DNA of 63,535 nt, the filler included, from Globobulimina sp. (taxonomy: Eukaryota), in assembly GCA_003354225.1 (NCBI GenBank). It is 23 parts of 23 records of this genome, joined end to end, with 100 filler letters (N's around TTAATTAATTAA, not from the genome) between each part and the next. Parts side by side here need not be neighbours in the genome. Positions count along the whole stretch, not along the records: positions 38,743 to 41,409 come from PIVH01005453.1; 22 more parts are not named here. One strand, written 5' to 3'. The notes below the pieces were generated by a model. The model searched no databases and was not told the DNA's origin. It saw only the letters and a program-made list of their open reading frames with translations. Below, one piece after another: positions 38,931 to 61,558 of this stretch. Position numbers and translations under genes: made by a program. Each line of letters starts with the position of its first letter. The stretch's first letter is position 1.

Positions 38931-41409
38931 ATGGCAGCCAAAAAATTAGCTGCAATGTTTGAGAATAAGGAGCAAGAAGCAAAGGATTTTAACACTAAAA
39001 ACGTAGTGCAAAATTCATCCGCAGCAAAACCAGTAATTCTGAAAGAAAGAGTTGATGCCTCCGCCTCGCCATATTATCAACGAATGCTAAAACAACAACA
39101 AAAAAAACAAGCACAAGACGCTAAATATCAGCCACACCACAAACAAAATAATGATGCCACCGATACCAACACTAATTTAAACGATATCACATTTAACAAT
39201 GGAGACCATACAAACTCAAATAATGGGTTACCAACAGCGCAGTCTATAAATGCCACCACAAACGCACCAAAAACAAACAATGCATCAGGTTCCATTCCAT
39301 TCCATTGCAAAGTAAATGCGTTTTTGCGTCTCATATACGAACAATATGCAACATTTTCAGTTCAATTTATTACCACATTCCAGTGGAAATATTTCAGTTT
39401 GAAACTGAAAATGTTTGACGGTGGAATTTTATTTTTGACATATTCCAATGTATAACTTTTCAGTTTGAAACTGATTTATTTTTTACACATTATACAGAGA
39501 TTGAAAGAATGCGTCAATTTGAGGAGGATAAGCAAAGGCAAATAGAACAGGATAAAAAAAGGCAGCTTGAAATTGAACAAAGTGCAGCCAAACAAGCGCA
39601 ACAAAGCAAAAATGAGTGGGAAATGAGAATTGCAGAGCAACAGAAAGAGAAAGAAGAAGCAGAGAGACAGCGGAAATCGAAAGAGGCCAAAAATGAACAG
39701 TTAAGTAACTGAAAAACTTTTGAGTCACAATCATGTCATGACTGCACAGAGAGCGACAGCAGAAGTCCAAAGAAGACAGAGATAGAAAAGCAAAACAAGC
39801 TGAAGCTGAAAGATTACGCAAATTAAAAGAAGAGCAAGAGTTCTGTCACTAGTTTCAGTTTGAAACTGAAAATATATGAATGCAAAAGTTTCAATTTGAA
39901 GTTGAAAATGTATCCCATTTTTAGTTTAATTTGAAACTGAAATATATGACAAATCCGTATTTTCAGTTTGAAACTAACTGAAAATAATACTTATATCACA
40001 GACGTAAATTAAAAGCTGAAGCTGAAGCAGACAGACAACGACAGCAAAAATTGAAAGAAGAGCAAGACAGAAAAGCAAAACAAGCGGAAGCTGAAAGATT
40101 ACGTAAATTAAATCAAGAACAAGAGTTTAGTGATATGACTGGCCAAATGTTCTCGGAATATCCTAGACCAATTTTATTGTACTTGAAACTGAAAATTATT
40201 GTTATATCACAGGCGAAAATTGAGAGAAGAAGAAGAGCGAAAGAGACAGGAATATGAAGCTGAGAGACAGCGGAAATTGAAAGAAGAGCAAGACAGAAAA
40301 GCAAAACAAGCGGACGCTGAAAGATTACGTAAATTAAAGGAAGAACAGGAGTTTAGTAATATGACTGAGCAAATTTCTAGTTTCAAACTGAAAAATATTG
40401 TTATATCATAGGCGTAAATCGAGGGAGGAACAGGAACGAAAAAAACAGGAATATGAAGCAGATAGACAGCGGAAATTGAAGGAAGCGAAAGATGAACAGT
40501 TAAGTTACTAAGAATGTTTTCAGTGGAAAATGTTGAGTGCAACGCATGTCATGTCATGACATTTCAGAGAGCGACAGCAAACATTGAAAGACGAGCAAGA
40601 GAAACAAAGAAAGTTGAAAGAGGAACAAGATAGAAAAGCAAAGCAAGCTGAAACTGAAAGATTGCATAAATTAAAAGAAGAGCAAGAGTTCAGTTTGAAA
40701 ATGAAAATATATCCCATTGAATGAAAAAATTTCAGTTTCAAAACCGAAAAAAATATACCGTCACTATTTTTAGTTTGAAACTGAAAATATTACAAACTGC
40801 AAAATCCAGTTTCAAACTGAAAATATTTTCCATGACAGACGCAAATCGCAAGAAGAAGAGAGGAAAAAACAAGAATTAGAAACTGAGAGATTGCGAAAAT
40901 TAAAAGAAGAATCTGATAAAAAGGAAAAAGAAAAACGCATTGAATCTGATCAGCAAATACTTGAACAACAACGCCAAAAACAACAAGAAAGAGAGCGAAA
41001 ATTAGAAGAATCCCGTCGCAAATTAGAAGAAAGGAAAAAATCCCAACAAGCACAGAAACTGCAACAAGAACAAAAACCAAAACCAAAAGTAACAAATCCG
41101 CCGCAACCCACAAACAACACTCCTCCGCAAACTGCATTAATTCAAACCATTTTTAAAAATGACAACGACATCAAACCCACAACAAAACGAAAGTCAGTGA
41201 CCACTACAAAGCCTACAAACTCGCTCAAAAACCGCACAAAGTCCGGAAAATCTGCAAAATCCGATACCATAAATTCGCTCAAAAAACACCGAAAATCTGC
41301 CAAATCCGACACCTCTGCAAAATCCGCAAAGTCCGATAAATCCGAAAAGTCCGAATCAAAAACCATGGAATGGTCCGACGGTGACACATCGAGCAAATCT
41401 AAAAAAGGC
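38931..41409 (+). CDS. Charged coiled-coil (E/R/K/Q) protein built from duplicated exons, about 7 introns
   Basis: Recurrent exon text KEEQDRKAKQAEAERLRKLKEEQ bounded by GT..(C/T)AG. Confidence 0.75.
39392..40823. repeat. Dispersed 19-bp palindrome TTTCAGTTT(G/C)AAACTGAAA, about 11 perfect or degenerate intronic copies
   Basis: Perfect copies at 39392-39410 and 39853-39871; degenerate copies near 39458, 39889, 39925, 39961, 40180, 40374, 40689, 40730, 40768, 40805. Confidence 0.85.
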
Positions 41410-41509: not shown

Positions 41510-43311
41510 GTCAAAGTATATCATGTCGATGAGTCCTTCTTCATTTAAGTCCTTGTATTCATTCTCTTCCCATTTTTGTTCTATTTCAAAATCATTGTGC
41601 ATTTGTTCCTTTGTTTCTGTATCAATCATTGATATTTCATTTTGTTTTTTCTCAGGTTTGTGTGGATGGAAAATTATGGAATTATTCATATCATTTTGCA
41701 GCATATTATGAACATTATTTATTTCGTTTATGTTTTCATTGGTTTCTATGGGTGGATCAGTTATGTCAGAACATATATTCTCATAATGCTTTCTGAGTGC
41801 TATGTTTTTGGGGGTTATTTCACCTTTATACATTAGGTAGGGTTCGTCAACAGTGTATTCATTGCGTTTGAAATGGTTTTTATACTGTTTCAATTTTTGG
41901 GAATTGTTCAGAGACTTAAATTTCTCCGCACTTTTCATTATATTCTCATTGCGGATCTCACGTGCTGAAATCTCCGTTTGTTTGAAATTATGCTCTGTTT
42001 GGTTGCATTATTTATGTTTTGGATATTTGTGAAAGTCCAATTGTTCATTGTCTCCATATTATATAGGCCAAATGCTTTGATCGTGGCGAGGATCATGGTA
42101 TAGTACGTTGCATATGTGGTCATTTTGGAGATGTATTTGCTTTCGTATCTATTTTGTGCAATTGGTGTATTTTTGCTGGAAAATTTGTGAATGTAATGAT
42201 ATCGTTTTGTGAGTATATGCTTATGTATTTGTATCAACTGTTTATTGGGCTGCTGAGTGCGGAAATTATAGTGCGCTTCTGCTGCTTTGTATTTGCAATG
42301 GACATTATTTATGGAGAGCACAATTGGTCGATGATCATAGTATACTGGGTGCGTTTCGATTTTCATACCGTGTATGGCATTATCATCATTTGTGAGGACA
42401 TAATCCACTATTGATCCTTTATTGTTTGTGTCTGTACCAAACGAGGTTGATATTCCATTGGTCCATTTACTATTTGCAACTGAGATATTTGTGGAATCTA
42501 TTAATTGTTCCATGATGGTACAGTATCTGTTTTTGACTGGTACTCCATCTTTGTTTTTATCCCCTGTTCTGTCGCCAGTTCGCGCATTGAAGTCCCCAAT
42601 TATTAGCATATCAGAGCAGTTATTTTTGTAGTTATTTATTGTATTTCCGAGTTTTTTATAGATCCGTTTCGTTTTCTCAAACGTATCATCATGGTACTGC
42701 CGTACATAGTTTATGGAGAGATAAATCGGTTTGTCATTCTCTTTTTCAATTTCAAACCACATTCCATCATATCCCTTTGATTTTGCCTTCAATTGTATTT
42801 TCGTTTTCAGTTTCCTGTTTTTGTAAACAATTATTCCTCCCACATAATTGTCCTTACCTACTGGTGCTTTGTGGCCAATCAATTCAAATCCATTGAGGTT
42901 CCATTTTGGTCTATCCTTCATGCCTGTGTCAACAAATGCTATTATGTCCAAGTGTTGGTTATTTCTCAAAAGTTGGTGGATCCATGGATGGCTATGATTT
43001 ATGACCGTTTTACATTTACTTTTTATGTTTAGAAATGCTATTTTCATTTTTTTAAGGGTCATTATTGTGGCTGTGTGTGGATATTTCTTTGGTGCAAAAA
43101 TTTGGAGGAAGGGGAATTGTTGGATGAGATGTGGGATATCTTTTTTACTAAAGTCTTTCATTATTTTTTTGAAAAGATATTCCTTTCTGTCATACAGGTC
43201 TGTGTTGTCTATGTAATATTTGTTTGTTGCATACATGAACAGGTTATTCAGCGCTATTATTGCATTGTTCTTCAATGTGGAAATGAATAAATTACTATTA
43301 CGTTTGTGCAA
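41510..43311 (-). mobile_element. APE-endonuclease-encoding (non-LTR/LINE-like) element fragment, with deletion/frameshift near 41985
   Basis: IAFLNI, DIIAFVDT, GGIIVY, IIGDFNARTG, SIVDYVL, DHRPI; RT not reached. Confidence 0.8.
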
Positions 43312-44275
43312 TGTTTGTCAGTGGGAAACAGTTTTTTATTGATTTATCTTACACATAAATTTAACGATTTTCAACATTCACACAATGGCAAACAAGTACA
43401 AAAGCAGATACCGTTCAATGTAAAATTACAAAGGATCAATAACACTCGTAAACAACCTTCAAACATCAAACAAATTTCCATCACATTTTTGGTTCTGTAA
43501 TAATTATTTTCGATATAATTTGATTGATTGGTTCCATATACATGTATTTCCCCCTTTATATTATAATAGAAATACTATTTGCTAGCACAATACTAGTTCT
43601 GTACTAGCACTGGGCTTACCAAGTTATGTAACTGGGAACTTAAATGCAAAAAGATTACTGTTACTTTCAATTTCAAAACTTGATTGGCACGGAAGAGCAG
43701 TCTAGGTACGTGCACGCCTGTAGCCAAAGGACCCATCTGAAAGAGGGTCAAATCCACTTGGCAAAGTTTTCTAGAAACAAAACAATGACTTTAAAGGAGT
43801 AGCAAATATATAATGTGAGATGTGATATGATCAAACTTTAATTGGATTTTTTTAGATTGTTTGGTGAAAACACCACGTGTATTTTAAATTCCGATAGTTT
43901 GTGTCTGGGAACGATTTGTAAATCAATTAAATTCAATTTAGAACATATCAACGCGGTTGCTGATGCTTTTTAGTTTTGAGTCTTTTGACAGGCATATTTT
44001 GCTCACTTTTTTGGAAGAAAATGTCACTTTGATCCTCAACATTCCAATATTCACGCTTACTGATTTTGGTTGAATACAAAATGAGCACCATCTTTGTAAA
44101 TTATATCCATACATATTTCCTAAAACAATAATATCTTTTTCTAAATTGACATCATTGACCATAAATGGATCCAACNNNNNNNNNNNNNNNNNNNNNNNNN
44201 NNNNNNNNNNNNNNNNNNNTTAATTAATTAANNNNNNNNNNNNNNNNNNNNNNNNNNNNNNNNNNNNNNNNNNNN

Positions 44276-61373: not shown

Positions 61374-61485
61374 TTTCAGTTTGAAACTGAATATTTGTTA
61401 TTTGCAAATTCAGATTCAAACTAAAATGCGTATTGCAAAATCAGTTTGAATCCGTAAAATTTATATAAATAGTTTGAAACTGAAA
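61374..61485. repeat. Further copies of the TTTCAGTTTGAAACTGAAA palindrome
   Basis: Copies near 61374, 61408, 61441 and 61470. Confidence 0.75.
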
Positions 61486-61558
61486 GGGGGCGGCTTCGAA
61501 AATGAAAAGCAATGAATCACAGGTAAATTCGTAGTTGCAATGAAAAGAAATGTAAAAA

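Follow-up and report, generated by a model that had tools for sequence, protein, structure and literature searches.

Foldback transposons and MITEs are recognised by long inverted repeats with subrepeats, shared termini and a target-site duplication, and introners by whole introns that are homologous end to end at unrelated positions and reflect recent intron gain. The target motifs of VANC proteins, in the VANDAL transposons of Arabidopsis, are 8-9 bp, non-palindromic, true tandem repeats that are largely confined to transposons; their arrays occupy introns and further non-coding stretches within certain subfamilies and also in an unrelated element, and a transposon-encoded protein binds such a target and removes silencing marks (Hosaka et al., 2017; PMC5735166). 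The PATCs of C. elegans are described as extended periodic DNA and not as short binding motifs (10.64898/2026.08.08.743475). Lastly, d(GCGNAGC) mini-hairpins, whose stability is reported to be far higher as DNA than as RNA, occur at phage single-strand origins and N4 promoters (PMC13037366).

We hypothesise that, in the foraminifer Globobulimina sp. (assembly GCA_003354225.1), the palindrome AGTTT(G/C)AAACT with its flanking A/T runs is a putative two-fold symmetric site on duplex DNA, with a sequence-specific and probably dimeric reader, found in a minority of genes, whose introns hold arrays of 1-12 copies; we give this reading about an even chance of being right. What is new here is that one fixed motif occurs both in host housekeeping genes and in transposon-like genes, and is phased only in the host genes. 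A literature search, made without most subscription papers or bioRxiv supplements, returned no description of the motif or of such arrays in foraminifera, and almost nothing on cis-acting DNA in this group.

An earlier note on a window of 63,535 nucleotides, composed of 23 unrelated contigs of ~2.67 kb with N spacers between them, had described an intron-confined 19-bp palindrome with perfect arms, in about 11 perfect or decayed copies. The palindrome is real, but perfect 19-mers number just 2 in the window, and the conserved unit is a core of 11-13 bp flanked by A/T runs, beyond which the flanks of the copies have nothing in common. A window scan that allowed up to 3 mismatches to the 19-mer gave 12 sites where 0.09 would be expected, 10 in one gene and 2 in a cluster near 61.4 kb. 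Far from being restricted to these loci, the motif is found in hundreds of copies over the 70-Mb eukaryotic assembly (48,370 contigs), where exact matches, with the reversed pattern as control, were 50 against 0 for the 19-mer, 337 against 2 for the 13-mer and 709 against 111 for the 11-mer core. A 13-mer with A/T at its centre occurs at just 4 sites (control 2), compared with the 337 that have G/C.

Most window copies lie, as had been claimed, in introns of a single gene (Table 1), which runs off the end of its contig (G000:C5453, 38743-41409). Contigs from two runs of two studies, X3 and X6, skip six of its GT..AG introns, with 3 joints found in both and 3 in X3 only, and intron 1 is read from adjacent pieces; these runs are called RNA-like solely because their contigs skip GT..AG introns, and such contigs cannot reveal rare splice forms. 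Contigs of a third, DNA-like run (X2) cover the introns as DNA. Five of the seven introns carry copies, 12 in total within 39289-40838 when one half copy and one copy with 4 mismatches are counted, and in each of the five a stretch of 14-20 nt separates the end of the last copy from the acceptor AG, which agrees with the 10-25 nt proposed earlier. The tendency of longer introns to hold more copies (209 nt, 2; 162 nt, 4; 151 nt, 4; 50 nt, 0) extends to 79 motif introns (rho = 0.62). Copy number in this gene is in part inflated, because its exon-intron units are internally duplicated. None of the RNA joints listed ends at the CAG of a motif, whereas a plain TTTCAG serves as the acceptor of intron 6; the acceptor-like word in the arms is thus skipped, as the note had supposed. 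Introns 2 and 6 carry CATGTCATG repeats. In a single observation, one X2 contig (depth ~5) lacks 13 bases at window position 39414, which would change the spacing of the intron 1 copies from 66 to 53 bp (five turns).

Table 1. Features of the window, and loci of a separate minisatellite family; positions are those of the whole window.
Feature	Position	Strand	Basis or remark
Host gene: spliced, internally duplicated, E/K/R/Q-rich coiled-coil-like protein, 7 introns	38931..41409	+	Reading frames, spliced X3/X6 contigs, internal repeats; start ATG inferred
Intron 1, 209 nt, 2 copies	39289..39497	+	Pieces 39283|39495 in X3 and X6; gene model agrees
Perfect 19-bp palindrome, centre G (intron 1)	39392..39410		Motif scan
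Copy with 2 mismatches, end 19 nt before AG (intron 1)	39458..39476		Motif scan
Intron 2, 50 nt, 0 copies	39700..39749	+	Joint in X3
Intron 3, 162 nt, 4 copies at 39853 (perfect), 39889, 39924, 39961	39840..40001	+	Joint in X3 and X6
Intron 4, 88 nt, right-half copy at 40176-40194	40125..40212	+	Joint in X3 and X6
Intron 5, 61 nt, 1 copy at 40375-40393, centre C	40351..40411	+	Joint in X3 and X6
Intron 6, 69 nt, 0 copies; acceptor is plain TTTCAG (40562-40567)	40499..40567	+	Joint in X3
Intron 7, 151 nt, 4 copies at 40688 (overlapping donor), 40730, 40768, 40804	40688..40838	+	Joint in X3
Second cluster: 61374-61392, 61408-61426, core 61471-61481	61374..61485		Modelled intergenic, immediately upstream of RCC1-repeat gene
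GC-rich half of mini-hairpin apex, as in long palindromes elsewhere in the genome	61486..61498	+	Sequence comparison
Minisatellite family loci: G000:C724, C4264, C5941, C22280, C27710 and others (L103-L124)			

The earlier note had also placed a second cluster at 61374-61485 before an acceptor-like site on the minus strand. This cluster is present, but the gene model puts it in intergenic DNA, with a minus-strand ORF on one side and the RCC1-repeat gene on the other, and "intron-confined" is for this reason too strong a term, although intron enrichment is strong.

The location of 398 copies (≤1 mismatch) in 81 motif-selected contigs was read from a home-made gene model in which the motif counted neither for nor against an intron; the majority of intron calls depend on this model, which recovered 6 of the 7 RNA introns exactly. 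It places 234 copies in internal introns (28 kb of sequence), 111 in edge or weakly supported introns (16 kb), 36 in intergenic DNA (16 kb) and 17 in exons (132 kb). Predicted introns thus hold 345 of the 398 copies, both in unrelated housekeeping genes (Ku70, PFOR, Vps41, helicases) and in some Harbinger-like transposase genes, and the palindrome is confirmed as recurrent, genome-wide and strongly intron-enriched. Pfam profiles or domain order run on across the motif introns of PFOR, a PALP enzyme, Vps41, Ku70 and two DEAD helicases; 94 exons were scanned, the majority having no family. The locus L051 (G000:C4282) is a pyruvate:ferredoxin oxidoreductase gene with the motif in three introns. 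Within 61 baseline contigs (40 systematic and 21 from the window) the exact core is found in 0 of 102 internal introns, compared with 17 of 96 introns of motif contigs once the richest intron of each contig is dropped, and therefore the mark clusters by gene. GC3 is higher in motif contigs (0.37 vs 0.32), a difference that may stem from the level of expression or from a mixed assembly.

Among paralogs the core is kept longer than synonymous sites are. Paralogs of a Harbinger-like DDE_Tnp_4 family, which carry 0-3 copies, have one intron position in common, and there the core is identical at 9-10 of 10 positions, against an identity of 47-54% at third codon positions and ~50-80% in the intron flanks; among the paralogs in this genome the first DDE intron is shared down to 54% identity and the second is missing in L174. 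Whole copies are gained or lost between paralogous introns. Symmetric double changes that would preserve the palindrome are not enriched (1 of 35 variants), therefore it is the sequence itself that is kept and not symmetry alone, and self-correction of the palindrome as the sole keeper of the motif is ruled out. Aligned homologous centres, in comparisons that are not independent, were the same in 94 cases and swapped between G and C in 16 of 110, with 0 changes to A/T (background 201 vs 619); we read the swaps as in-place inversions. When 113 motif-bearing intron records were compared, similarity was confined to paralogs or to the inner part of palindrome families, and most host-gene introns have only the motif in common.

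Neighbouring copies 16-46 bp apart are randomly oriented (91 same, 103 opposite), which rules out an origin by tandem duplication. Their spacing peaks near 21, 31, 42, 52, 62 and 71-72 bp. Of 266 pairs among those listed (one class being represented by 50 of 57), 216 are left once paralog duplicates are removed, and these give a best period of 10.4 bp, with a mean cosine of 0.34 against a null of 0.07 (sd 0.047); the value is again 0.34 with one pair per contig family, and the G-then-C class by itself shows no significant phasing (p = 0.18). Phasing is strong in 23 host-gene contigs (mean cosine 0.55 vs 0.03, n=59) and in 25 other singleton contigs (0.39, n=46), whereas none is seen in the 34 contigs of the multi-copy or palindrome class (0.05, n=146), where the peak is at 24 bp instead, in a division into host and multi-copy classes that was made partly by hand after the 24-bp peak had been seen and in which L089 was assigned to the host genes by reading its translation. 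Copies show no phase relative to splice sites (p 0.50 and 0.35). On the sense strand the centre is G in 97 of 136 host and singleton copies (97 G : 39 C) and in 61 of 107 multi-copy ones.

The earlier note had offered a tiny mobile element, a dimeric protein-binding site or an RNA hairpin, and of these the dimeric site is the best fit. We propose a putative symmetric protein site on duplex DNA because the G:C centre is required, the sequence is fixed even in diverged paralogs, orientation is indifferent and spacing in host genes follows whole turns of the B-DNA helix. Set against this are the bias of the centre on the sense strand, which would not be expected of a purely symmetric DNA site, and the phasing, which is absent in multi-copy contigs and poor in the window gene (spacings of 66; 36, 35, 37; and 42, 38, 36 bp). 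Slippage and fold-back template switching may multiply the copies, because each pair of them forms a direct and also an inverted repeat. Fold-back copying would flip the centre in place and could account for copy turnover, centre flips and concerted arms, and whole-turn spacing in host genes would be kept by selection for binding on one helical face, or on nucleosomal DNA.

Both the putative reader and its function are inferred, and protection from silencing is our leading guess for the latter. A bound factor may protect gene bodies from silencing, with some transposon subfamilies having supplied the system or exploiting it by means of dense 24-bp arrays and long palindromes; this is a tentative proposal, possible but not favoured. 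More doubtful is the fuller picture of a foraminiferal code for gene-body licensing, in which a symmetric protein site, either born in DNA transposons or imitated by them, would have been spread through introns as GNA-capped palindromes were copied by fold-back, and would have been tuned to the helical repeat in host housekeeping genes. If true, it would unite, in a third supergroup of eukaryotes, the specific motif and transposon link of the VANC logic with the helical phase and host introns of the PATC logic, and a protective mark common to transposons and host genes would bear on how genomes distinguish self from invader and on the co-option of transposon signals. The word is defined (11-13 bp) and present in ~600 copies beyond expectation, its helical phase can be measured, and natural alleles differ in copy number, so that tests of binding and chromatin can be designed directly.

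As with the VANC targets, a short motif has accumulated in introns and other non-coding parts of certain transposon subfamilies, here some DDE_Tnp_4 lineages. Out of 38 DDE_Tnp_4 matches, 25 contigs were examined and 9 of these have the exact core, mostly in introns, a biased share as several of these contigs were reached via the motif or a motif-bearing query. Unlike those targets, the foraminiferal motif is an odd-length palindrome with unrelated spacers, helical phase and random orientation, and it occurs in single-copy housekeeping genes (Ku70, PFOR, Vps41, helicase). As with PATCs, it is intronic, clustered by gene and ~10-bp periodic in host genes, with another unit length in transposon-borne versions and a strand bias that suggests coupling to transcription. 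Unlike PATCs, the ~10-bp signal in the introns of a subset of genes belongs solely to the copies of a fixed palindrome; arrays are shorter than ~450 bp, and in place of extended motif-free An/Tn clusters the share of AA/TT against distance between copies is near flat after the copies are masked, with no clear periodicity in the spacers. The motif therefore falls outside both classes, because it is neither transposon-confined nor tandem-repeated and shows no motif-free An/Tn periodicity.

A related explanation is that the arrays are a neutral or structural relic of a PATC-like kind, derived from transposon-borne 24-bp subrepeats that, once in transcribed genes, were reshaped toward the helical repeat as indels and transcription-coupled mutations accumulated; any effect would be mechanical, with no need for a reader. 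The 24-bp spacing in transposon-like families, as opposed to the 10.4-bp phase and strand bias in host genes, would follow from such a history; it would mirror the reported trajectory from 35 bp to 10 bp of C. elegans Helitron minisatellites (10.64898/2026.08.08.743475), and the GNA mini-hairpins described below suggest single-stranded DNA intermediates. The core is, however, conserved base for base while the spacers diverge, the flat AA/TT profile shows no evident phasing once the copies are masked, and most host-gene introns share nothing beyond the motif, and we consider this explanation unlikely.

An RNA hairpin that aids or guards splicing is in our view quite improbable. Here copies would pair with themselves or with each other, shorten long introns and hide the internal CAG, with the right arm as branch point. 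Such hairpins can form, introns 1 and 7 folding better than their shuffles (z -4.4 and -5.1), and the motif CAG goes unused in the listed joints; motif introns are longer than others (154 vs 98 nt), the centres of last copies concentrate 22-31 nt from the acceptor, and the sense-strand bias of the centre would also be accommodated. However, a hairpin needs neither a G/C loop base nor one fixed sequence, there is no reason in RNA for a 10.4-bp phase, first copies lie at similar distances from donors, apex loops occur on either strand, and intergenic clusters exist. The branch-point reading of the right arm was rejected, as CTRA shows no enrichment close to the acceptors in 190 plain introns (0.11, against 0.22 after shuffling). 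Near the acceptors of plain introns in the sampled contigs no canonical branch-point word is enriched, and the words TGCA, ATGCA and CATG are.

Long palindromes accompany the motif, with 16 of 152-457 bp in 82 motif contigs against 0 in the 61 baseline contigs, and 14 of them contain the exact core. In 12 of the 16 a hairpin of the form C-GNA-G or C-GNNA-G sits close to the apex, on one strand or the other, and GC-rich hairpins of these two types number 26 in motif contigs compared with 0 in the baseline. This recalls the d(GCGNAGC) mini-hairpins of phage origins and N4 promoters, although the hairpins here cap intronic palindromes in a eukaryote. The palindromes occupy most of their introns and most are located between collinear exons of paralogs; their arms are 81-94% alike, and changes between paralogs are mirrored in both arms (21 vs 2, 34 vs 0 and 24 vs 0), therefore the arms have been homogenised in place. 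Such concerted, GNA-capped palindromes point to active fold-back copying inside introns. Inverted repeats that lack the motif were also seen (L117, ~1450-1560; L057, 4175-4529; one with a GAA apex), so a palindrome does not strictly need the motif to form.

These structures could be taken for a mobile foldback element, MITE or introner, with the long palindromes as its complete form, the motif as a subterminal transposase site and the short arrays as decayed copies. One palindrome family is indeed dispersed over ~11 loci with apparently unrelated exons, shares its apex and inner subrepeats (inner part 75-97% alike) and recurs in another public record, L147; half apices are present (window 61486-61498; L079; L128), and the core is carried by the DDE_Tnp_4 contigs counted above, in that biased sample. 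Like foldback elements, MITEs and introners, these are long, subrepeat-bearing palindromes that fill introns, with a common inner part in the dispersed family. Unlike them, they have outer arms that are locus-specific and concerted and intron positions that appear to be old, being shared by paralogs with 0-3 copies. At 11 internal palindromes the termini are unrelated between families and the target-site duplications that the earlier note had suggested seeking were not seen in the flanks, and the 113 intron records include no introns homologous end to end at unrelated positions. Of the mobile element put forward in that note, there remain local gain and loss of copies and their presence in some Harbinger-like transposase genes, without common flanks, and we regard a mobile origin of this kind as highly improbable.

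Several long palindromes lie on contigs with DDE_Tnp_4 genes, and the L071, L053 and L085 groups are confirmed as DDE_Tnp_4. L080, near a long palindrome, gives a hAT-like lead (0.84-0.87) and has 3 genomic matches; L066, also with 3 genomic matches, was assigned no family by search, the L073 ORF had no match, and a second ORF of the Harbinger-like element had no Pfam or Atlas match. Tyrosine recombinases (PF00589) gave 73 matches in the assembly, and the motif is absent from the 15 of these loci examined, so that no link to such elements was found there. A separate ~40-bp minisatellite family is built on the GGCGGCGAAGCCGCC mini-hairpin (97 sites vs 2 in the control), within a longer repeat with common flanks, and looks Helitron-like from its sequence. 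A link between the motif and this GCGAAGC minisatellite was rejected, there being just 1 near-match in 12 loci.

It is also possible to see the motif as a CHR-like site for a LIN54/tesmin CXC protein (MuvB/DREAM), as the core contains TTYRAA and the crystallised CHR13 duplex agrees with the 13-mer at 12 of 13 bases (PMC4974476). However, TTYRAA permits an A/T centre and needs no outer AG/CT, both of which are fixed here, and the CHR is a promoter element, whereas the foraminiferal palindrome is longer, requires G/C at its centre and forms intronic arrays. A search of this incomplete assembly for a CXC (TCR) protein, which recovered no control, gave no match. The resemblance to CHR13 is probably incidental, and we hold a CHR-type site to be a very remote prospect. 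An artefact of amplification, assembly or a mixed-species bin, which might be suspected from the fragmented assembly, the 5 of 16 long palindromes that touch contig ends and the GC3 shift, is scarcely credible, as the DNA-like run X2 reproduces introns that RNA-like runs skip, the palindromes have imperfectly matching arms and are mostly flanked by exons that are collinear among paralogs, no Ku70 was found other than the one with the motif (the one gene tested) and the palindrome family recurs in L147.

Elsewhere in the window, an ORF at 41938-43317 (-) has an Exo_endo_phos_2 (endonuclease/exonuclease/phosphatase) domain and possibly comes from a non-LTR retroelement. An eIF3h exon of the window, the one gene compared, has its best relatives in Nonionella, Elphidium and Bolivina, which indicates a probable benthic foraminifer. 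Of 32 metagenome stretches, only L147 belongs to the foraminifer motif family, and by our reading of their sequences the others are bacterial operator-like pairs or unrelated repeats. In the bacterial-looking L137, L141, L143, L158 and L168, pairs of palindromes 29-30 bp apart lie directly upstream of start codons, in the manner of dimeric operators, and are presumably convergent with the foraminiferal motif.
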